From: an uncultured cyanobacterium
GTDB taxonomy: Bacteria; Cyanobacteriota; Cyanobacteriia; Cyanobacteriales; CAWCAG01
Assembly: GCA_963793425.1 (NCBI GenBank)
Contig: CAWCAG010000007.1
Coordinates: 512,001-576,000, forward strand
Reading direction: 5' to 3'
Length of the DNA: 64,000 nucleotides
Part shown: one piece after another, positions 5,830-18,139 of the stretch
How the letters are laid out: each line of letters opens with the position of its first letter
Numbering within the stretch: position 1 is the first letter of the stretch
Translations under genes and position numbers: made by a program
The notes under the pieces: generated by a model
Told to the model about the DNA's origin: nothing
Database searches by the model: none
What the model saw: only the letters and a program-made list of their open reading frames with translations

Positions 5830-6029
5830 TTATTTTGTGGAATAATGCCTTGATCTTAAGATAACGCGGATTAGTTATCAATTAAATTTTAGTTAATTTG
5901 CGGTGCATTAATTACTTAAGAGTCAATACTCAACATCTGGTTTTCATGAAATTAAGAGTATAGTGCTAGAGTCAAGGACAAAAGGGGATTTAGCATCAAA
6001 ATCAATTATTAGCTTTATAATTTGCACCC

Positions 6030-7124
6030 ATGGTATTGCCAACTAATTTAACCAAACGCTATCAACATATTCTTTGGGCTACCGTTCGTCACTATATCGC
6101 TACAGCAGAACCAGTGGGTTCAAAAACTTTATATAATCAATATGACTTTAGGGTTGCCGCCACAATCCGTAATGCTATGGGGCGTTTAGAAAAGGCTGGT
6201 TTACTCTATCAACCCTATACTTCTTCTGGTAGGATTCCTTCAGACTCTGGTTATCGAATTTATGTAGATAACCTCATGACTCCGGATGAAGCTTTAGGCA
6301 ATAGGGTAGAAGAGTTGCTGAGTAGTAAGCTTAATTGGGATTCTTGGAGTTTCGAGGATCTTTTGCGGGGGGCAGCCCAGATTATTGCTACCCTAAGCGG
6401 TCATATTGCCCTAATTACTATGCCCCAACATTCTACTACGAGATTGCGTTACTTAAAGTTAGTCGAAATTGGGCAACAACAAATCATGTTAATTGTGGTG
6501 ACAGATTGCCATAAATCTCAATCTATTCTTATGGAAAGAAACTCAACACAGAAAAGAGAAGATGGAGTAGATATACAGTTAACAGAAAGAGAACTAAATA
6601 TGCTTTCTAATTTTCTTAATAGTAAGTTGCAAGGACATTTGCTATCAGAATTAGCTTGCATAGATTGGGGAGAATTAGACCGAGAATTTGAATGTTATGC
6701 AGATTTTTTGCAAGTATTGCAAAAGGAATTAACTCGCCGTTCCCAAGCCCCTAAATCTAATCCTATTATGGTTAGGGGGCTTTCAGAAGTTCTACGCCAA
6801 CCAGAATTTTCCCAATTAGAACAAGTGCAAATGTTGCTACATTTATTAGAAGAAGAACAAGAGCAGCTTTTACCCTTAATCTTAGCTATCCCAGGAGCAG
6901 AAAGTAATCAAAAGCGAGTTACTGTGAGAATTGGTGCGGAAAATCCTCTTCAACCTTTGACAACTTGTACTTTAATTTCTGCTTTATATTGGCAAAATGA
7001 AGTCCCTTTAGGCAGTGTTGGTATTATCGGTCCAACGCGAATGTTATATGAAAATGCCATTCCTTTAGTAGAGTCAGCAGCAGATTATCTTTCTAGTACT
7101 TTAACTCAGGTTTTTGCATTTTAA
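6030..7124 (+). CDS. hrcA: Heat-inducible transcription repressor HrcA
   Basis: YIATAEPVGSKTL, ATIRN, TSSGRIPSDSGYRIYV, GIIGPTRM.Y. Confidence 0.95.
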   Translation: MVLPTNLTKRYQHILWATVRHYIATAEPVGSKTLYNQYDFRVAATIRNAMGRLEKAGLLYQPYTSSGRIPSDSGYRIYVDNLMTPDEALGNRVEELLSSKLNWDSWSFEDLLRGAAQIIATLSGHIALITMPQHSTTRLRYLKLVEIGQQQIMLIVVTDCHKSQSILMERNSTQKREDGVDIQLTERELNMLSNFLNSKLQGHLLSELACIDWGELDREFECYADFLQVLQKELTRRSQAPKSNPIMVRGLSEVLRQPEFSQLEQVQMLLHLLEEEQEQLLPLILAIPGAESNQKRVTVRIGAENPLQPLTTCTLISALYWQNEVPLGSVGIIGPTRMLYENAIPLVESAADYLSSTLTQVFAF

Positions 7125-7130
7125 GCGACG

Positions 7131-7877
7131 ATGGAAATAATCAACTCAAAAATACAGTCCATCCTCAAGCTAGAGGGCTTGAGTTTAGCTACATATGTGG
7201 GAAATGTTTATTTATTACAAGATATCTTTTTTACTGTTTATCCTGGGGAATTTATTGGTATTGTTGGTGCTTCGGGGGCGGGAAAAACTTCTCTTTTACG
7301 CTTAATTAATCGTCTTGGAGAAGCGACTTCTGGCGCAATTTTTTTTGAAGGGAAAACAATTAAGCAAATACCCATTCAGAAATTACGCCAACAAATAGTT
7401 CTCGTCTCTCAAGAGCCTAAACTATTAGGAATGAAGGTAGAAGAAGCCCTAGCTTATCCTCTAAGGCTTAGAAAAATTTCTTCCCAAGAAATCTCCTCTC
7501 AAGTAAATAAATGGCTGGATAAATTAAAGATTAATCCAGATTGGTTAGAGCGCAATGAACTACAACTTTCTACTGGACAAAAACAACTTATTGCTATTGC
7601 TCGTGGTTTAATTATAGAACCCAAAGTTTTATTATTAGATGAACCAACTTCAGCTTTAGATATAGAACAAACAGAGCATTTACTAAAGGTTCTTAGGGAA
7701 TTAACCACCGAAAAGAAAACCACCATAATCATGGTTAATCATCAACTGGAGTTGATTAAAAGATTTTGTCAACGCATCCTTTACCTAAAACAGGGAAAAT
7801 TACAGCAAGATGCTCTAAGCAAAGAAGTTAATTGGTTGCAATTAGAAAAAAGTCTGAAAGAAGCAGAATTATACTAA
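7131..7877 (+). CDS. ABC transporter ATP-binding protein
   Basis: Walker A GASGAGKT, signature LSTGQKQ, Walker B LLLDEPTSALD. Confidence 0.93.
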   Translation: MEIINSKIQSILKLEGLSLATYVGNVYLLQDIFFTVYPGEFIGIVGASGAGKTSLLRLINRLGEATSGAIFFEGKTIKQIPIQKLRQQIVLVSQEPKLLGMKVEEALAYPLRLRKISSQEISSQVNKWLDKLKINPDWLERNELQLSTGQKQLIAIARGLIIEPKVLLLDEPTSALDIEQTEHLLKVLRELTTEKKTTIIMVNHQLELIKRFCQRILYLKQGKLQQDALSKEVNWLQLEKSLKEAELY

Positions 7878-8123
7878 ATCCGATGTATAAAAGCCAATAA
7901 TGAATTAAACATAAGTTAACCAAACGATAATTCGTTACTGGTGTTTCTATTTTGTTTGTACACAACTTTTTAGGGATAATACTTCAAACAATTTTCAAGT
8001 TGAGAATATTCACCTGCTGCATTTTTTTGTAAGCTACAGTATCAATTGTCGTCATTTCTGTTCTTTTAGCAGATAGTATTTCGTACTCAAATATCTCAGC
8101 AACAACGTAAAACTGTTCTCTTT

Positions 8124-9272
8124 CTATGGCCAAACTTGTTTACCTTGTTTGTCAATGTAAACATACTCGCCTTCTAAGGTAGAGTGCCATAATGTGTTCT
8201 CAAAATTATTTACATAATCTAAACGGGCCGGTACAACCATTTGGCCAGTCTTATCAATAAGTCCCCACTTACTATTAGATTTTACAGGGGCCAATCCGTT
8301 AGTAAATTCTTCCGCTATTTGAAACTGTGATTCGATAGCTATTTTTCCTGTTTCGTCAATATAACCCATCTTATTATTTAGTTTTATGGGAGCTAAACCT
8401 TCAGCAAATTTTCCTGCAAACTCAAATTGAGGAGAAATAGCCCACTTACCTTTCGAGTTAATAAATCCCCATTTTCCTTTACTCTCAGCAGCAGCCAAAC
8501 CTTCTGAAAAACTGCTTGTCCATCCTAACCAAGGACGGACTACCCATTTTCCTTTTTTGTTGATGAAGCCCCAGCCACCATATTTAACAGCAGCTACTCC
8601 TTCTGAAAATGATTCTGCTGCCTCAAATTTAGCTTTGCTTACTTGTCTACCTTCGTTATCAACAAAACCCACTAAATTATTTTGGAAAAACTTAGCTCGT
8701 CCTTCTGAAAATTGGGCTACAGATTCATACTGTGGTGATACTATAAATTCACCAGTTTTGTTAATGAAACCCCACTTGCCATCTTTTTGAGCAGCAGCTA
8801 AACCTTCTGAAAAGTTATTAAGTTGAGCAAATTGATTCTTGACTACCAATGTTTCCTGATGGTCGATAGCTCCCCAAAGATTATCTATTTTGACTAACGC
8901 TAGTCCTTCCACAAAAGGTCTAACTTCAGCAAATTGAGGGCTAATAACTACTTTACCTTTTGTGTTAACAAAACCCCATTTACCTTCTATTTTTACAGCA
9001 GCAAGTCCTTCAGAGAAGGTAGTAGCATCAGCAAATTGAAGAGGAATCATTATCTGACCTGAGTTGTCAATATAACCATATTTGCCCTGTTCATTGACAA
9101 GATATCTTTCTTCGGACATATTACTAAGCTCTGAGGAAGAAATTGTTACAGAATTCAATTTATTAGAGTTACTTGAGACTAGTTGGGGAACCTGGCAACT
9201 GCTAAGGATAAAACTAATAGTAATAGTTATCCAGAAGTGGATTGTAATTTCTTTAATAATTGATCTGCTCAT
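8124..9272 (-). CDS. WG-repeat (KWG) lipoprotein; candidate immunity protein
   Basis: Lipobox ILSSC; about 7 repeats of FSEGLA..K.GKWGFI(N/D)..G; starts 34 bp after the DUF4157 gene stop. Confidence 0.88.
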   Translation of the reverse strand: MSRSIIKEITIHFWITITISFILSSCQVPQLVSSNSNKLNSVTISSSELSNMSEERYLVNEQGKYGYIDNSGQIMIPLQFADATTFSEGLAAVKIEGKWGFVNTKGKVVISPQFAEVRPFVEGLALVKIDNLWGAIDHQETLVVKNQFAQLNNFSEGLAAAQKDGKWGFINKTGEFIVSPQYESVAQFSEGRAKFFQNNLVGFVDNEGRQVSKAKFEAAESFSEGVAAVKYGGWGFINKKGKWVVRPWLGWTSSFSEGLAAAESKGKWGFINSKGKWAISPQFEFAGKFAEGLAPIKLNNKMGYIDETGKIAIESQFQIAEEFTNGLAPVKSNSKWGLIDKTGQMVVPARLDYVNNFENTLWHSTLEGEYVYIDKQGKQVWP

Positions 9273-9306
9273 CTAGCTTCTAAATCAGAATGTTTTTTTG
9301 AAGACA

Positions 9307-10629
9307 TTAAGACTCATTCTTAATGGTAATTCTGCCTACACTTCTTGAATCTTTTCTAGATTGGATTAAATAAGCCCATATTTGTTCCCAATGTTCTGTA
9401 TTAACAACTGTGACACAACCTTGGCTCACCATACCTGGATGTAGATAGCGATCTCCACTATTACCGATACGGAACCAAGTTGTGGCGTAGTTACCATATG
9501 CGGCTCCAAGACTATGTTGATAGTCAGGAATTTCTAGATCGTATGTACCTGAAGGAATAGGATTGGTAGCATCCATATGTGCGCTTATGGGACCGAAGCT
9601 ACCAAAATTAAACTGACCATTCCACACATTTCCAAAATCCTTGACTTTTGTCCAAGTTACCTGAGCTGAACTATTAGGATTGAGGTAATGACCCAATTGG
9701 TCTGTGCTTACCTTTGCTTTTTTGTCTTTATAATACCCTTCGTGAATTTTAATCCTTCTTACGTCTCCTTCGTTAGTTAATAGGGTAACTTTGAGAGTAT
9801 GTGGAAGTTCTACAGGCTCTCCAGGGATATGGAAAGGACCAAGATAACCACTTTTTAAATCAGCCCATCCTGGGTGCTGTGGAGCTACAATACGACGATA
9901 CGTACCTCCTCTAGCAATCAATTGCTCTTCATTTCCCCTAGAAGCTGCTTGCTCAGATTGCGAATCTTCCTTTTTAGCAACAAAGCTGTTGTTATCTGGA
10001 ATGGATGAAGTGTTCTTTTGATAGTCTTTTAATAAAGGCTGAACAGACTCTCCAGCAGCTACCTTAGCCCCCACAGCATCAGCCTCCACCTCATACTTAT
10101 CTCCCACCTTGCCCATCTCCCCCGCAAGTTGTACCTTACCGGATTGTTGCTGGACAACATGAGTTCCTTCATGGGCAGCTAACTCAACGCTAGGAGGCTT
10201 TTGGAAAGCAATCTTGTTCCCCATTGTATAAGCCTGCGCCCCCAATTGCTTACTCGCTGCTGTTGCTGGGCCACCGATATAAGCTTGGACATGGGATAAA
10301 TCTTGTCCAAATGACCTTTGAATTCTATCTAAATGGGGTAACGCTACAGGGGAACCTGTAAAACCTGTAGCAGCAATCTGGGTGGGAGAATGATTAGCTT
10401 CTTCACCTCCACATTTGGCACATTTAGCTTGTACCTGTAAACCAGAACACATATTATCCCACATGGCCTTTTCACCGGCTATTTGCTGTTGCGTTGATGA
10501 CTTCTTTTGAACTACAGGATTAGGAGTAGCTTTTTGTTGTACAGGTTGAAAGTGAGGGGCAGAATTAATAGTTGGCTTTGGTACAGGAGGAATAAAAGAG
10601 CTAGATTTTTGGACAAGTTTGTGACTCAT
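9307..10629 (-). CDS. DUF4157 (eCIS core domain) protein with C-terminal Tlde1/DUF2778-like L,D-transpeptidase-fold toxin domain
   Basis: RSFGQDLSHVQ...LGAQAYTMGNKIAF...LAAHEGTHVVQQ (HExxH at 10159-10173) then YEVEAD; C-terminus PIPSGTY...RYLHPGMVSQGCVTV. Confidence 0.85.
   Translation of the reverse strand: MSHKLVQKSSSFIPPVPKPTINSAPHFQPVQQKATPNPVVQKKSSTQQQIAGEKAMWDNMCSGLQVQAKCAKCGGEEANHSPTQIAATGFTGSPVALPHLDRIQRSFGQDLSHVQAYIGGPATAASKQLGAQAYTMGNKIAFQKPPSVELAAHEGTHVVQQQSGKVQLAGEMGKVGDKYEVEADAVGAKVAAGESVQPLLKDYQKNTSSIPDNNSFVAKKEDSQSEQAASRGNEEQLIARGGTYRRIVAPQHPGWADLKSGYLGPFHIPGEPVELPHTLKVTLLTNEGDVRRIKIHEGYYKDKKAKVSTDQLGHYLNPNSSAQVTWTKVKDFGNVWNGQFNFGSFGPISAHMDATNPIPSGTYDLEIPDYQHSLGAAYGNYATTWFRIGNSGDRYLHPGMVSQGCVTVVNTEHWEQIWAYLIQSRKDSRSVGRITIKNES
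10299..10629 (-). repeat. Copy 1 of a 331-bp direct repeat (shared leader of the two toxin-like genes)
   Basis: Ungapped match to 11771-12101 with about 17 mismatches counted by eye. Confidence 0.95.
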
Positions 10630-10668
10630 GGTTAGTGACGGAAGGAAGATAATTTGAGTAGAAAACAG

Positions 10669-10710
10669 TGCTTCTTAAACATTGCTTCTTAAACATTGCT
10701 TCTCAAACAT
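10669..10710. repeat. 14-bp tandem repeat (TGCTTCTTAAACAT)x3 upstream of the DUF4157 gene
   Basis: Units at 10669, 10683 and 10697; the third has one mismatch. Confidence 0.9.
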
Positions 10711-10766
10711 TCTGTTACGGAAACATCTTTTAAAATGAGTTCCAATGTGAACTTTCGTCAAAATAA

Positions 10767-11162
10767 CTAAAGACCGATTAATCCTGTTGAAACAGAAACA
10801 TTGACAACTTTGCCTTCTTGATGATCAATTGCCACTAACCATCTTCTTGAAACAAGCAATGCTTTGCTAAGCAACAGTTTGCTAAAGTCACAATGAAGAA
10901 AATCTTTCTCCTCAGTAGTTCCAAAAGTTTCATCTTGGAGATATCTACACTTAAAGCGATTTTCCTCCATTACTTTTTTTGCTTGGAAAACAGGACTACC
11001 CACCGAAATATGAGCTAGAATCTCTTTTTCCATCAAGCGTGGATCTTCATAAAACTTGATTTTGTTTACCATTGATTTACTCGCAAAGTTAAAAGCAACG
11101 TACACAATGATTCCTACTAGGAAAAGAAGTAAAAAGTTTAGTGGTTTTTGATATATATTCAT
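10767..11162 (-). CDS. Small membrane-anchored hypothetical protein; candidate immunity protein
   Basis: N-terminal hydrophobic helix FLLLFLVGIIVYVAF, two Cys; starts 9 bp after the stop of 11172-12101. Confidence 0.75.
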   Translation of the reverse strand: MNIYQKPLNFLLLFLVGIIVYVAFNFASKSMVNKIKFYEDPRLMEKEILAHISVGSPVFQAKKVMEENRFKCRYLQDETFGTTEEKDFLHCDFSKLLLSKALLVSRRWLVAIDHQEGKVVNVSVSTGLIGL

Positions 11163-11171
11163 GTTGTTGAG

Positions 11172-12101
11172 CTAAATTTTCATTTTCCAACCAGGGGCCC
11201 ATACAGGTGGAGAAGGATTACCTAAATCAGCATCTCGTATACCTTGATGAGCTACAGAGTTACTGTTGGGACCTAATGGAAAATAACGAAGTTTTTGGGC
11301 TGCAATTCGACGCATTGTACCCACTAAGCTATCCCTGTATCTATTACAGGCTTTAAAATCCAAGTTAGTTGCTGCTTTAATTGTGCCACTGATATTTCTT
11401 CCCCAATCTACAGAACTAGAATCATATTGCCCATAGCTAGTGACTAAGTATCCCCAAAAACCTTGATCCGTTCCACTAGAGTTGCTTGAATCAGTACGAC
11501 TTACATCACTGGCAGTACCACCAGTGCTACCACTACCGCTACTACCGCTAACACCTCCATTTGCACTCGGTCCACCGCGAAAAATTGTTTCTCTTGCAGA
11601 TTCGATAGGTTTACCTTGCTCATCTACAGCTACTGGATCTGAAACTATAATGAAACCATGATTACCTACCCCAAAATCTACTCCGTAGTAGCGAAGCTCA
11701 ACTTTACCTGGCCGAGTAAAAGATTTGGCAAGTTGTATTGTTGAGGCTCGGTCACTTTCTACTTTAGCTGAATCTTGTCCAAATGACCTTTGAATTCTAT
11801 CTAAATGAGGTAACGCTAAAGGGGAACCTGTAAAACCTGTAGCAGCAATCTGGGTGGGAGAATGATTAGCTTCTTCACCTCCACATTTGGCACATTTAGC
11901 TTGTACCTGTAAACCAGAACGCATATTATCCCACATTGCCTTTTCACCGGCTACTTGCTGTTGCGTTGATGACTTCTTTTGAACAACCGGATTAGGACTA
12001 GCTTTTTGTTGTACAGGTTGAAAATGGGGAGCGGAACTAATCGTTGGCTTTGGTACAGGAGGAAGAAAAGAACTAGATTTTTGGACAAGTTGGTGACTCA
12101 T
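11172..12101 (-). CDS. Polymorphic-toxin-like paralog: shared leader, DUF4157 core missing, C-terminal H...YxxxGPNSNS...PGW domain
   Basis: First 110 aa nearly identical to 9307-10629, diverging after RSFGQD; C-terminus NHGFIIV...IFRGGP...YFPLGPNSNSVA...WAPGW. Confidence 0.8.
   Translation of the reverse strand: MSHQLVQKSSSFLPPVPKPTISSAPHFQPVQQKASPNPVVQKKSSTQQQVAGEKAMWDNMRSGLQVQAKCAKCGGEEANHSPTQIAATGFTGSPLALPHLDRIQRSFGQDSAKVESDRASTIQLAKSFTRPGKVELRYYGVDFGVGNHGFIIVSDPVAVDEQGKPIESARETIFRGGPSANGGVSGSSGSGSTGGTASDVSRTDSSNSSGTDQGFWGYLVTSYGQYDSSSVDWGRNISGTIKAATNLDFKACNRYRDSLVGTMRRIAAQKLRYFPLGPNSNSVAHQGIRDADLGNPSPPVWAPGWKMKI
11771..12101 (-). repeat. Copy 2 of the 331-bp direct repeat
   Basis: Matches 10299-10629. 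Confidence 0.95.
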
Positions 12102-12298
12102 AATTAGTCAGGGAAGAACGCTACATTATCGTACTTTGTGCCGGGATGTCTCTTTCTCCTCGTTTATCTGACCTAATCTATCAAGCTAGTGAAGAACAAT
12201 CTACCTATATAACCTTCAATTTAGCCCTAAAAACTTTTCCTCAACCTTTATCAAAACGAAAAAAAGGTTTAAAACCCCGCCGTTTTAGGGCGGATTCG

Positions 12299-12327
12299 TT
12301 GATTTTTTCAGGTACAATAAACATAAT
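12299..12327 (+). promoter_or_regulatory. Putative sigma70 promoter of tnpB
   Basis: TTGATT-N17-CATAAT upstream of the tnpB ATG. Confidence 0.4.
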
Positions 12328-12354
12328 TTGCCAATAGCAACTGTTGCAACCAAC

Positions 12355-13551
12355 ATGAAAGCTAGATACAGATACAGATTTTACCCAACGAAGGAGCAGA
12401 AACACTCATTTGCTCAACTATTTGGCTGTATCCGCGTCGTCTGGAATGATGCTCTGGCACAATGCAAAAGTGAAGGCAAAGCATTAAGCTACAACAAACT
12501 ATCTAGCCTGTTAACCATAGCCAAGAAGACAGAAGAAAGGATTTGGCTAAGGGATGTATCAGCAGTCCCCTTACAACAAACTTTAAGAAACTTAGCCGCA
12601 GCCTATAAAAACTTTTTCGACTCGTGCCGTGGTAAAAGGAAAGGTAAAAAAGTCTTACCACCAAGATTCAAAAAGCGGAGTAATCAACAAAGTGCAGCAT
12701 TTACAAAATCAGCCTTCTCAATGGAAGGGCAACAAGTCTGCCTAACGAAAATTGGCAACATTACACCTATACTCTCAAGAGAACTTCCCTCAACTCCCAC
12801 CTCTCTAACAGTAATCAAAGGTAGTGCGGATAGATACTTCATAAGCTTCGTAGTTGAAATACAACCACAAAACTTACCTAAGTGCCAATCAAGCATAGGA
12901 ATAGACTTAGGAATAACCGACTTTGCCACATTCAGTAATGGAGAGAAAATCAAAGCCCCAAAACCCTTAAAAAAGAAACTAAAGAAGCTCAGAAAACTAC
13001 AACGTAACCTTGCCAGAAAGACGAAAGGTAGTAAGAGACGAGAATTAGCTAGAAGGAGAGTAGCCAAGCTTAACGCCAAGATAAAAGACACCAGAACAGA
13101 TTTTCTACATAAGCTATCAACTAAGATAATTCGTGAAAACCAAACGATAATCTTAGAAGATTTAAACGTATCGGGAATGCTCCGAAACCGTAAGTTATCC
13201 CGTGCAATTAGTGATTTAGGTTGGCGTAGTTTCAGAACTATGTTAGAAGCCAAATCAGTAATGTATGGCAGAGAATTTAGGGTAATAGATAGATGGGAAC
13301 CCACATCACAGAGATGTCATGAGTGTGGTTTTAGAGGCGGCAAGCAGGAACTCTCTATTAGAGAATGGACTTGCTTAAACTGCGGTGCAGTTCACGATAG
13401 AGACGTTAATGCCGCCATAAATATCAAAGTCGCGGGGGGACACTCTGAGACGATAAACGGACGTGGAGGGAAGCGTAAGACTACAACCGTAGCAGCACCC
13501 AAAGAAACGTCAACCCACTTAAAACCTGTTCAACTTTCGTTGTTTGGGTAG
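12355..13551 (+). CDS. tnpB: RNA-guided endonuclease TnpB
   Basis: N-terminal HTH YRYRFYPT; RuvC residues GIDLG, ILEDLN, DRDVNAA all present; Zn ribbon CHEC...CLNC. Confidence 0.95.
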   Translation: MKARYRYRFYPTKEQKHSFAQLFGCIRVVWNDALAQCKSEGKALSYNKLSSLLTIAKKTEERIWLRDVSAVPLQQTLRNLAAAYKNFFDSCRGKRKGKKVLPPRFKKRSNQQSAAFTKSAFSMEGQQVCLTKIGNITPILSRELPSTPTSLTVIKGSADRYFISFVVEIQPQNLPKCQSSIGIDLGITDFATFSNGEKIKAPKPLKKKLKKLRKLQRNLARKTKGSKRRELARRRVAKLNAKIKDTRTDFLHKLSTKIIRENQTIILEDLNVSGMLRNRKLSRAISDLGWRSFRTMLEAKSVMYGREFRVIDRWEPTSQRCHECGFRGGKQELSIREWTCLNCGAVHDRDVNAAINIKVAGGHSETINGRGGKRKTTTVAAPKETSTHLKPVQLSLFG

Positions 13552-13611
13552 ATGAGGAATCCCCGTCTCTTTAGAGCGGGGAGGATGTCAAACCATAGTC
13601 TTAATCCCCAT
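13430..13611 (+). ncRNA. Predicted TnpB omega/reRNA overlapping the tnpB 3' end and right end; guide predicted as the flanking ACCATAGTCTTAATCC...
   Basis: Inferred from known TnpB biology plus the right-end hairpin and TCAA boundary; 5' boundary approximate. Confidence 0.55.
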
Positions 13612-15296
13612 GCCCCCTTACGTCACTGGCAAATTATCACTCCCATAGGTACAGACCCCCTGTTTTTACGTCCCTTAGCCTTAGATGAAACCATCTTCCA
13701 CTACCTCTTAGGACAACCTTGCCTTGACCCACAATTACAGGGTTTAGTCAAGCCTTTAACCCTGAAGCAAACAACCTTGCCCCCTTCCCACCAAGCCTTA
13801 GCAACCAGGTTAATCACTGCCTGGTCTAGCCCTAACCCTCCGGTAGTACAATTAGTGGGTTCTGATTTTGCTGCTAAGGCTACTATTGCTGCTATTTCAA
13901 CTCAACAGTTAGGCTTTTCTTTACTCACCATCCCTGCCCATCTCCTACCCCAAGAAACCACAGCATTACAAGAATTCTGCCAACGACTAGAAAGACAAAC
14001 TATTTTGGGACGTAGCTTAGTTTTCCTCGATTGTCGTCAAATCTTAGAAAGTGATGGTTTAGCAGAGAAATTCTTTTCTCAATTAATTGAACAACTGCCT
14101 ACTCCCTTCCTCATTAACTCCCCAAAGCCCAAACAAATTTCTCAACCTTGCTTAATTCTGGAAGTTAACCCTCCCACTAAAGGGGAACAATTGCAACTTT
14201 GGCAAACTGCCTTGGGAGATGTGGCTACAAATTTAGAAACAGAATTGGCATCCTTGGCATATCAATATAATCTCGACCTCCCCACTATCCAAACCATCTG
14301 CACTCAAACTCTTACAGAATTGAACTTAAGTAACTCTCCTAGAGAATTACTCCCCAGCCTCCGACAAAACTGTCACCGTTTAGTTCGTCCAGCTTTACAA
14401 GGGTTAGCACAACACATCGAAACCAAAGCAGATTGGGACAGATTTAATCCTGCCGGAAAAAGAAAAGAACATCCTTGAAGAAATTGTTGCCCAAGTTACT
14501 TACAGAAAAACTGTTAGTGCCGACTGGGGCTGGGCAGGGAAAGGGCAACGGGGACAGGCAATGGTGGCAGTCTTCGCTGGGGCAAGTGGTACAGGAAAAA
14601 CTATGGCAGCAGAGTTGATTGGAAAGAGGACAGGTTTGGATGTTTATCGTATTGATTTGGCTGCTGTGGTGAGTAAGTATATAGGGGAAACGGAAAAACA
14701 TCTGGGTCAAATTTTTGATGGTGCAGAAAGGGGAGGAGCAATTTTACTTTTTGACGAGGGGGATGCTCTGTTTGGTAAGCGTACTGAAGTAAAAGATAGT
14801 CGCGATCGCTATGCTAATTTGAGTGTTAGTTATTTGTTGCAACGTTTGGAAGCTTACGGTGGATTAGCTATTATTACTACTAATTGGGAAGAATCTTTGG
14901 ATAAAGCTTTTAAACGGCGTTTTCGCCATATTGTTCAGTTTCCCATGCCAGATAAAGAGACCAGGAAGCTACTTTGGCAAAGGATTTTTCCTCAAGCGAC
15001 ACCAACCCATCAGTTAAACTTTACGGAGTTAGCAAAGATGCACATTAGCGGTGGTCATATTCGCTCCATTGCTCTTAATGCCTGCTTCCTCGCTGTCAAA
15101 ATAGGACAACCAGTGACTATGAAGCAAGTGGCGATCGCTGCCCGTGGAGAGTACATAAAGCTAGATTTGGGAAATATGGATAGTTTTACTCAGCGTTGGT
15201 TAAAAGAAGCGGAGTTAAGTTAATTAAAACCTACTCCCTTAAAAAATAACTAAATTTTCTTTGCAAATCGAAAAAACAGTAATACAATCATTATTC

Positions 15297-16773
<1,477 letters not shown>

Positions 16774-16856
16774 TTGAGCAAGTTTTCAGGAATTACTCAC
16801 TTCCAACTTGTGGTTTAAAACAGATGAGTTGGATGAATAGGAGTAAGAGGTTATGG

Positions 16857-16899
16857 TTAGAGAGTTGGATAAAATTAATTAATCTCCAATCTCTCTAAC
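16857..16899. terminator. Inverted repeat between convergent thiC and amidohydrolase genes
   Basis: gttagagag.ttgga ... tccaatctctctaac. Confidence 0.55.
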
Positions 16900-16927
16900 T
16901 ATTCTTTAATGATTTAACCATCAGCTA

Positions 16928-18139
16928 TTAGCCATTAAACTTTTCCACACAACGCACAAACATTTCCACCCCCGTACTCAACGCAGACTCATCAAAATTA
17001 AAGCGGGGATGATGATGAGGGAAATCTAAACCTTGCTTTTCGTTAGCAGAACCAAGAAAGAAGTAACAACCTGGTACTTCCTTGAGGAAAAATGACATAT
17101 CCTCACTAGCCATAGTTTGACATTCCGGTACAACTCCTTGGGGAGTTTCGACAACTTGTAGGGCAACCGAACGGACTAACTCAGCTATGTTAGTATCATT
17201 AATTACAGGAGGATATAATTGCCAATAATCCAACTCATATTTTGCTCCATAACTCTGACAAACTCCCGCAATTACCTCTTCTACGCGCTGAGAAAGGTAA
17301 CCTTCTAGGGTAGGATTGAAATAGCGTACCGTACCGCTTAAATAAGCTCGATCAGCGATCGCATTTAAGGCTGTTCCTGCTTTTAGTTCCCCGACGGTAA
17401 CTACCGCCGAATCTAAGGGATTAACATTACGGGCAACTATACTTTGCAAAGCATTAACAACTTGGGCGCTAACTAGCACAGCATCAATGGTTTGGTCTGG
17501 CATAGCCCCATGACCACCCTTACCGAAAATATCACAGCGAAAACATTCTACCGCCGCCATCAATGCCCCTGAACGTACTCCTAATGTACCTACAGGCAAG
17601 CGATTCCATAAATGAAGCCCGATAATAGCATCAACATCAGGATTCTTGAGAACCCCCGCCTCAATCATTGGTTTTGCACCTCCTGGATGCTCTTCAGCCG
17701 GTTGGAAAATTATTTTGACAGTTCCCCGAAAACTATTCCGATGAGTTTCTAGGTAATAAGCTGTTCCCAAGGCGATCGCTGTATGCCCATCGTGGCCACA
17801 AGCGTGCATGACTCCATCATGGCGAGAACGGTAGAGTATACTATTCTCTTCCTGGATCGGTAAAGCATCCATATCTGCTCTAATTGCTAAAACTGGGCCA
17901 GGATGAGAACTATTTATAGTTGCAACGATACCAGTTTTAGCGATGTCTGTTTGATGATCAATTGCCCACTCTTGCAATTTTTGGGCGACAAATTTTGCAG
18001 TTAACTTTTCTTGAAAACCCAGTTCAGGATATTGATGAAGATGTCTTCGCCATTGTACTAACTGGGAATGTAAAGCTTTAATTTCTAACCGGATTTGAGA
18101 AAAATCCAGAGAATTAGTCTGGGGGAAAGTAGATACCAT
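16928..18139 (-). CDS. M20 family amidohydrolase (N-acyl-L-amino acid amidohydrolase)
   Basis: RRHLHQYPELGFQE, RADMDALP, MHACGHDGH, FQPAEE, HHHPRF. Confidence 0.93.
   Translation of the reverse strand: MVSTFPQTNSLDFSQIRLEIKALHSQLVQWRRHLHQYPELGFQEKLTAKFVAQKLQEWAIDHQTDIAKTGIVATINSSHPGPVLAIRADMDALPIQEENSILYRSRHDGVMHACGHDGHTAIALGTAYYLETHRNSFRGTVKIIFQPAEEHPGGAKPMIEAGVLKNPDVDAIIGLHLWNRLPVGTLGVRSGALMAAVECFRCDIFGKGGHGAMPDQTIDAVLVSAQVVNALQSIVARNVNPLDSAVVTVGELKAGTALNAIADRAYLSGTVRYFNPTLEGYLSQRVEEVIAGVCQSYGAKYELDYWQLYPPVINDTNIAELVRSVALQVVETPQGVVPECQTMASEDMSFFLKEVPGCYFFLGSANEKQGLDFPHHHPRFNFDESALSTGVEMFVRCVEKFNG

Follow-up and report, generated by a model that had tools for sequence, protein, structure and literature searches.

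A window of 64,000 nucleotides from an uncultured cyanobacterium, beginning at position 512,001 of contig C7 in the genome under study (G000), contains an inserted island that in our judgement is probably a satellite locus for the cargo of a contractile injection system (CIS); it has two toxin/immunity pairs of the polymorphic kind and the decayed remains of a loader ATPase gene (Table 1). The island would have been placed horizontally, serving a CIS that has its structural genes in other parts of the genome, and its two toxins, here termed toxin A and toxin B, would combine one common N-terminal leader with different peptidoglycan-directed C-terminal ends, or tips: an L,D-transpeptidase-fold (Tlde1-like) His/Cys enzyme in toxin A and a TseH/PPPDE-like His/Ser domain in toxin B. 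This view is carried by the anatomy and insertion of the locus, by the folds and conserved residues of the two tips, by toxin/partner pairings that recur across genomes, and by the CIS genes of the same genome.

The window sequences at 6000-7869 and 15238-16999 are 87-89% identical to those of a member of the same genus (G001), in which they lie 115 bp apart. The intervening DNA is therefore an insertion that is absent at this site in the congener, which the original prediction, made from the letters of the window and its open reading frames (ORFs), had overlooked. That prediction had placed the locus between an ABC ATPase gene and thiC, had listed genes for toxin B, a small membrane protein, toxin A and a WG-repeat lipoprotein on the minus strand, and had stated that structural genes were missing, all of which agrees with our results: the four minus-strand ORFs are present (309, 131, 440 and 382 residues), the plus strand holds a TnpB ORF, a 308-residue ORF and a 220-residue AAA ORF, and family searches found no CIS structural genes in the locus or in the window. 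Chance is no concern for these genes, as the ORFs are long and the family matches strong, and five of six proteins scanned had no match in NCBIfam. The flanking ABC-ATPase gene was considered as a toxin exporter and rejected; it is kept beside thiC in the island-free G001.

The expectation that a CIS would be encoded elsewhere was borne out by searching the rest of the genome, which encodes a CIS split over three loci. The locus at C7:38-48 kb carries a sheath gene, three gp19 tube genes, two Pvc16_N genes and a LuxR-type regulator gene; that at C9:197.7-201.7 kb carries Tail_P2_I, Baseplate_J and gp25 genes; and that at C5:326-334 kb carries gp19, CIS_tube and VgrG-like genes. Nine matches to PF13699, the DUF4157/eCIS_core family, were found in the genome, whose gene content looks cyanobacterial and whose closest plasmid and genome matches are cyanobacteria. 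As a side observation, a GerE/LuxR regulator and a histidine kinase (L013:13-393 and L012:16449-17603, C7:44-46 kb) stand between the two Pvc16_N genes; regulator types of that kind are reported near extracellular CIS (eCIS) operons (PMC8213781).

Toxin A is, as predicted, a DUF4157 protein: residues 101-164 match DUF4157/eCIS_core (PF13699, E 3.3e-15; 56.5 bits vs a cut-off of 22) and include the motif HEGTH. DUF4157 is reported to be an eCIS core domain found at the N-terminus of many toxins and to be enriched in eCIS loci, with an odds ratio of 2614 (Geller 2021, PMC8213781), to be present in 36% of eCIS-associated toxins (EATs), and to occur in many copies in filamentous cyanobacteria (Danov 2024, PMC11297309). 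Beyond a linker, the AlphaFold2 (AF2) model of toxin A contains an SH3-like domain (residues ~240-316) and a YkuD/Tlde1-like domain (319-440), the tip being modelled with a predicted local distance difference test score (pLDDT) of 86.6 and a predicted template modelling score (pTM) of 0.82. In VIA comparisons the best 12 matches of the tip are all L,D-transpeptidase-type chains (Z 8.4-10.6, 96-106 residues aligned), headed by Pgp2 (6xj7; Z 10.6, root-mean-square deviation (rmsd) 2.5, 103 aligned) and followed by 4xvo (Z 10.5) and Csd6 (4xzz; Z 10.4), while Tlde1a (7uma) was matched with Z 7.7. A search with residues 215-440 returned 22 homologues, 12 of which carry PF13699 and one of which (P0016) carries PF03734 (YkuD), a family that scored above its gathering threshold in that homologue only and not in toxin A. 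His397 and the pair Gly404-Cys405 are invariant in an alignment of 24 sequences (H183 and C191 in fragment numbering), and the motif …HPG…SxGC… suggests that His397 and Cys405 are the counterpart of the catalytic pair of these enzymes. Sequence searches of solved structures with either full-length toxin yielded nothing useful, and neither toxin has a recognisable Sec signal or other secretion-system domain.

Toxins A and B share their start. A direct repeat of 346 bp, identical at 325 positions between its two copies (94% at the DNA level), encodes a leader of which 103 of 110 residues are the same in both proteins. Identity ends after …RIQRSFGQD, where the DUF4157 region has just begun; beyond this point toxin A continues into the HExxH core and toxin B passes straight to its tip. 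Toxin B has no Pfam match and lacks the DUF4157 core, a point that the original prediction missed, keeping only the ~22 first residues of that region; its junction, GQD/[SV]AKVESD, recurs in a protein of G001 (P0002). The outer end of the repeat, at 12116, is the exact start of the ATPase homology on the other strand, and from this coincidence we infer a single event that created toxin B and also removed the 5' end of the ATPase gene together with the original divergent promoter region. Such an event would have been a recombination at the first strand of DUF4157 that duplicated the leader and eliminated the core. The toxins have the composition of polymorphic toxins, that is, a conserved N-terminal part and variable tips, of which the B-type tip is found also on Rhs/YD and eCIS_core proteins.

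The leader may act as a loading signal. Its first residues (…QKSSSFIPPVPKP…PVQQK) are of a K(K/S)xS(F/W)xPP-like form with which four paralogues in G000, likewise putative cargo proteins, also begin. Its residues are often P, Q, S and K, and on a simple index of composition it was not set apart from the folded domains. In AlgoCIS the N-terminal region of the cargo is reported to be required for loading, while DUF4157 and the C-terminal domain are dispensable (10.64898/2026.05.27.728243). By analogy, toxin B represents in nature what the engineered DUF4157 deletion represents in that system.

For the tip of toxin B, a word-based search returned two relatives and an exhaustive HMMER search 136 remote ones, in all of which the homologous part is C-terminal; among 30 homologues scanned, 14 carry Rhs/YD families, four carry eCIS_core, and the remainder are mostly short proteins without any family. 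The AF2 model (pLDDT 84.0, with a low-confidence Gly/Ser-rich insert of ~35 residues) matches TseH best by VIA (6v98; Z 9.8, rmsd 3.9, 126 aligned), then a PPPDE/DUF862 protease (2wp7; Z 7.5) and 6r99 (Z 7.2); CLN5, Aichivirus 2A and PLAAT4 are the structures matched after the PPPDE/DUF862 protease. Conserved residues, in fragment numbering, include R63-G-G-P, D120 and Y161, with H36 kept in 55 of 55 sequences and N167-S168-N169 in 60 of 60; H36 and S168 correspond to His148 and Ser280 of toxin B. The sole cysteine column of the family is occupied in 44 of 60 sequences, and a catalytic cysteine paired with the histidine was not found. In the model S168 sits at the start of the last helix, the position of the nucleophile in papain-like folds, and TseH/PPPDE-type folds carry Cys where this family has Ser. 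On the helix position of S168 and the invariance of the His and Ser, we read the tip as a probable His/Ser variant of the TseH/PPPDE-like fold, presumably acting in the manner of these enzymes.

Two other leads concerning this family were discarded. A family profile searched against solved structures matched only the Rhs DPxGL region that some members of the alignment carry. Additionally, a 522-residue DUF4157 protein of G000, which stands upstream of a second copy of the small-membrane-protein gene, was considered as a further B-type toxin and rejected, the B-family hidden Markov model having found only toxin B itself among the six-frame ORFs.

Directly downstream of each toxin gene is a gene for a protein of the envelope, which would neutralise the toxin in the producer and its kin. 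The partner of toxin A is a lipoprotein with nine WG_beta_rep repeats (PF14903, E 3.5e-101) and an N-terminal lipobox (...FILSSC). The toxin/WG pairing occurs three times: in the island, in a Coleofasciculus metagenome-assembled genome (MAG; locus L034), and in a second pair of G000 at C7:56.3-59.0 kb, ~10 kb from the sheath/tube locus, in which a 501-residue DUF4157 protein with a related tip is joined by a 377-residue WG protein. When residues 240-440 of toxin A, its tip, were modelled in complex with the mature WG protein, the score was 0.82, vs 0.11 for the best control; the mark for such models is one attained by 116 of 157 solved complexes and, among 215 mismatched pairs, by 2. Agreement of contacts among runs is at least 83%, the partner pLDDT is at least 85, and the contacts flank the His/Cys site. 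The model supports binding of the WG lipoprotein to the toxin A tip, with the WG propeller lying over the active-site face, and the lipoprotein is the candidate immunity protein for toxin A. Little is published on what WG repeats do: their Pfam name and accession led to one paper, on repeat modelling.

The candidate neutraliser of toxin B is a small single-pass membrane protein, with one hydrophobic 19-mer at residues 10-28 and no Pfam or NCBIfam match. A word-based search for homologues returned only the protein itself, and homologues are present in seven of 401 genomes of the order. Its pairing with a B-type toxin occurs in G000, in two modules of G001, and in G288, where five tandem copies (L078:5190-7478, on G288:C16) directly follow the gene of one 713-residue DUF4157 toxin with a B-type tip, itself adjoining a Tail_P2_I gene. 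The five tandem genes are an immunity-gene-array pattern. The hits in G339 and G391 lie so close to a contig end on their upstream side that the neighbouring gene is not readable.

As to the ATPase, the original prediction described a single AAA+ loader gene head-to-head with the toxin genes. The motifs that it had named, DLAAVVSKYIGETEK and FGKRTEVKDSRDRYAN, are present in the 220-residue ORF, but the gene is a pseudogene in three pieces, with a 5' truncation, an insertion sequence (IS) and, in the assembly, one extra base. Four intact paralogues (595-677 residues), used as tblastn queries against the window, gave collinear pieces at 12116-12241/12246, 13591/13606-14439 and 14441-15208. For piece 1, two of the four paralogues gave E 1e-5 and 2.8e-5, and piece 2 is 29-34% identical to the paralogues. 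ATPase homology is absent upstream of 12116, so that ~65-75 codons with which the long paralogues begin have no counterpart here. The assignment to the Afp15/Pvc15 type holds: over 243 residues the AAA part shares 46% identity (E 3e-65) with a Serratia entomophila plasmid ATPase (NZ_MT039141.1) encoded between CIS tape-measure and DUF4255 genes, and the N-terminal part gives a weak, collinear match to the same protein (E 0.005). From this gene order we take the Serratia gene to be afp15, the record carrying no such annotation. In AlgoCIS an AAA+ protein is reported to mediate loading (10.64898/2026.05.27.728243).

The element that splits the gene, which the original prediction did not mention, has the domains PF01385, PF07282 and PF12323 (OrfB_IS605, Cas12f1-like TNB and HTH_OrfB) of an IS200/IS605 TnpB, and blastn comparison with further genomic copies placed its ends at 12247/8 and 13591/2. 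By coordinate arithmetic, removal of 12247-13592 keeps the ATPase reading frame, and the element would have entered the ATPase gene after the event that produced toxin B. The frameshift at 14440 is a less secure lesion. G001 reads through the site as ADWEDLILPEKEK, and the base at 14439/14440 is left out in three of four public metagenome runs (contigs of X1, X2 and X4), all four runs coming from one study that is possibly the source of the assembly. The same contigs carry five substitutions within 14403-14450 and few over the next 800 bp, a pattern suggestive of strain differences confined to this spot or of an artefact in the consensus; the extra base itself may be peculiar to a single strain or stem from faulty assembly. 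At both ends of the IS these contigs extend 29-31 bases into it, and an empty site is spanned by none of them. Across the genome the TnpB family numbers at least eight copies of nearly full length, besides many fragments, with another fragment at ~C7:576.4-576.9 kb, past the end of the window.

No ATPase gene was seen in the three CIS structural stretches that were annotated, and each of the four intact paralogues, which carry the PF22977 winged-helix variant, stands beside a protein with the leader or a GDKYEQEAD motif. If the toxins of the island are still loaded, they would be loaded by one of these four ATPases. Two of the proteins beside ATPases lack DUF4157: a 715-residue protein (C5:2113566-2115713) with the leader, TPR and PG_binding_1, and a 269-residue protein (C7:303177-303986) with the GDKYEQEAD motif and Ntox16 (E 1.3e-17). 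About 6 kb past the window end, a 425-residue ORF (C7:582235-583512) has an AAA module 53% identical to that of the island and no long N-terminal region.

Tips turn over among relatives, as the original prediction had anticipated. With the toxin A tip as the query, which is not proof of absence, no A-type tip was matched in G001, G002 or G288, all three of which have Pvc16_N, and G001 carries other tips in a related array (L032, G001:C3). The array consists of minus-strand modules that all lack about the first 63 codons, namely a broken B-like tip, P0002 and a truncated module, each of these three followed by a small membrane protein, and a last module in which the core is joined to another tip and two small ORFs come next. 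P0002 combines an A-type DUF4157 core, a second partial 'TGF…LPHLD…GQD' start, and a B tip 68% identical to that of toxin B. The array adjoins an IS4-type transposase and an ATPase that is 5'-truncated to 422 residues. From these altered modules it follows that the locus is mobile or rearranged, with tips that differ between close relatives. One tip of the array (L032:6062-6889) bears the motif …WIGGDAYFHCKANCEAAQLGPYG…, which we presume to resemble the serum amyloid A signature, and is followed by ORFs of 119 and 108 residues.

Table 1. Features of the island and its flanks, in window coordinates
Feature	Position	Strand	Details
ABC_tran gene (flank)	7131-7877		Pfam
Inserted island, 7,368 bp	7870..15237	.	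Between ABC-ATPase gene and thiC leader
WG-repeat lipoprotein, 382 aa	8124..9272	-	PF14903; candidate immunity protein for toxin A
Toxin A, 440 aa	9307..10629	-	Leader, DUF4157/eCIS_core, linker, SH3-like, YkuD/Tlde1-like domain
Repeat copy 1	10299..10644	-	Toxin A codons 1-110 and the 15 bp upstream
Small single-pass membrane protein, 131 aa	10767..11162	-	Candidate immunity protein for toxin B
Toxin B, 309 aa	11172..12101	-	Leader joined after ...RSFGQD straight to TseH/PPPDE-like C-terminal domain
Repeat copy 2	11771..12116	-	15 bp upstream and codons 1-110 of toxin B
ATPase pseudogene, piece 1	12116..12246	+	Matches ~64-115 of intact paralogues
IS200/IS605-family element, tnpB only	12247..13592	+	Inserted in ATPase gene; ORF 12328-13551, 407 aa
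308-aa ORF	13552-14478	+	ORF listing
ATPase pseudogene, piece 2	13593..14439	+	N-terminal and degenerate middle; tblastn frame 2
Extra base shifting frame	14440	+	…DWD / a / DLILPEKEK…
ATPase pseudogene, piece 3	14441..15223	+	AAA+ module; PF00004 E 3.1e-21, GASGTGKT, LLFDEGD
220-aa AAA ORF	14561-15223	+	ORF listing, Pfam
TPP (thiamine pyrophosphate) riboswitch of thiC (flank, outside island)	15295..15391	+	RF00059, 71.1 bits
ThiC gene (flank)	15400-16773		Pfam

A number of observations weigh against a functioning cargo locus with two toxin/immunity pairs. The island lies ~470 kb from the nearest CIS structural genes (C7:38-48 kb), its own ATPase is a pseudogene (the frameshift being the insecure part of that finding), and toxin B retains just 15 bp of original upstream sequence. 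Promoter-like sites number 15 vs 15.5 expected in shuffled sequence and terminators 5 vs 7.8, no better than shuffled, and the scan is therefore uninformative on expression. The enzyme assignments have weak points as well: for toxin A, Foldseek also placed the L,D-transpeptidase family at the top, at a weak E of 1.2e-3, and Pfam Tlde1_dom (PF10908) scored 19.8 bits, below its cut-off of 30.1; for toxin B, the best Foldseek value was E 0.13. DUF4157 is known from unrelated contexts too, and is reported in VgrG2b, an effector of a type VI secretion system (T6SS) (cited in PMC11297309). Regarding the partners, A-type tips were found at 26 loci in other genomes, and in the 22 where the next ORF was scanned a WG gene occupied that position only once, in the closest locus (L034, 51% identical); the others had another DUF4157 gene in two cases and mostly unannotated ORFs of 117-342 residues. 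Finally, copies of the small-membrane-protein gene stand without a nearby B-type toxin at C7:903.8 kb of G000 and in G366.

In the main alternative, which we hold unlikely, the island is a remnant in decay, kept chiefly because of the immunity genes: the loader would be dead, toxin B a promoter-less chimera, the toxins as yet unbroken but undelivered, and the two envelope partners, alone still maintained by selection, would protect against the toxins of neighbours. The up to three lesions of the ATPase fit such a remnant, as do the headless toxin modules and the truncated ATPase of the G001 array and the orphan copies of the small-membrane-protein gene, orphan immunity genes being well known for T6SS effectors (10.1101/2020.02.18.954545). 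Against decay, both toxin ORFs run from a start codon over their full length, their leaders are 94% identical at the DNA level, the catalytic-type residues are intact, and four intact paralogous ATPases are available. Decidedly improbable, in our estimate, is a self-directed role in which the cargoes would degrade the wall of the producer under stress, with the partners restraining them, as might be supposed from Anabaena, where CISs are reported to be thylakoid-anchored (tCIS), two DUF4157 proteins to co-purify with them, and ghost cells devoid of outer membrane and peptidoglycan to be linked to them (Weiss 2022, PMC8894136). Both tips have peptidoglycan-enzyme folds and the genome looks cyanobacterial, yet tip turnover between close relatives, cognate partner genes and tandem partner arrays are hallmarks of inter-strain conflict and not of housekeeping lysis.

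Still less credit can be given to the proposal that these are polymorphic toxins independent of any CIS, exported otherwise or released by lysis, with DUF4157 a mere pre-toxin domain and the ATPase serving another role. The distance from the CIS genes, the occurrence of the B-type domain mostly in Rhs proteins, and A-type homologues that lack DUF4157 would agree with it; the lack, in either toxin, of a Sec signal or a recognisable domain from another secretion system, the resemblance of the ATPase to that of the Afp cluster, and the position of its intact paralogues next to leader-bearing or GDKYEQEAD proteins speak for a CIS. A satellite cargo island of a CIS remains the explanation that we prefer, and the peptidoglycan-type folds together with envelope-located partners fit the antibacterial use suggested in the original prediction; in this reading the toxins would be loaded into the CIS and might serve to discriminate kin.

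Taken together, the observations also invite a broader and more tentative synthesis, possible in our view but doubtful as a whole. In it, the CIS structural loci of this lineage would lack a loader and each cargo locus would bring its own Afp15-like ATPase, so that loader plus leader-bearing cargo would form a mobile unit. New cargoes would arise by recombination at the first DUF4157 strand, acting as a swap junction, and toxin B would be a product of that process, indicating that the leader alone may suffice. The His/Ser variant of the TseH/PPPDE fold would constitute an unannotated family used by Rhs and CIS toxins, and WG-repeat propeller lipoproteins an immunity family for L,D-transpeptidase-fold toxins.

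The island adds a case to a kind of locus already known, and it is instructive for its leader-only chimera, for ATPases that travel with cargo, for a WG-repeat candidate immunity protein, and for a Ser-type TseH-like tip. For the questions of what DUF4157 does and how cargo is loaded, the locus offers a natural pair of putative cargoes with one leader, with and without the DUF4157 core, in a genome where the genes of loader ATPases accompany the cargo and not the machine. It also offers two candidate antibacterial enzyme/inhibitor pairs that lack family annotation.

Among known systems, the EATs, such as Cgo1/Cgo2 of AlgoCIS and Alr3311/Alr3312 of Anabaena, resemble toxin A in having an N-terminal region, an HExxH DUF4157 domain and a variable C-terminal effector (PMC8213781, PMC11297309, 10.64898/2026.05.27.728243, PMC8894136), and G000 holds CIS genes and many DUF4157 copies, a content also reported from filamentous cyanobacteria (PMC11297309). 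The island differs in its distance from the machine, 88% of EATs being reported within ten genes of the operon (PMC11297309); in both of its toxins having a candidate immunity gene, a feature described in the EAT literature as uncommon; and in toxin B, a natural version without the DUF4157 core. With the Afp15/Pvc15/Alg15 ATPases the island shares the AAA module, whereas the gene here is a pseudogene and the ATPases of this genome adjoin putative cargo genes, none lying in the three annotated structural loci.

Tlde1/Tae5 is a T6SS effector reported to act in the periplasm and to be countered by a periplasmic immunity protein (10.1101/2020.02.18.954545). Toxin A has the same Tlde1/YkuD fold, the conserved His and Cys, and an adjacent gene for an envelope-located partner. 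However, its catalytic domain is preceded by an SH3-like domain, its partner is a WG lipoprotein rather than a DUF2195 protein, and its delivery would rely on a CIS leader and DUF4157 rather than on a T6SS. TseH is reported to kill from the periplasm and to have a downstream immunity gene (PMC4453574), and the toxin B tip is like it in the conserved His of a G-x-H-G/A context, comparable to GHAG of TseH (PMC4453574), and in homologues that end Rhs proteins, as reported for TseH relatives; it differs in having no sequence-level match to TseH and in Ser being its only invariant candidate nucleophile.

A further parallel is with the orphan arrays of contact-dependent inhibition (CDI) and Rhs systems, in which a conserved 5' part is followed by variable tips, each with a cognate small gene after it, and the junction has short homology arms; the leaderless modules of G001 are alike in this respect. 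The toxin genes of the island differ, since both have a full leader and start codon by way of the 346-bp tandem duplication. VENN and PxxxxDPxGL are the junction motifs of CDI and Rhs toxins, and in place of either the junction here falls in the first strand of DUF4157.

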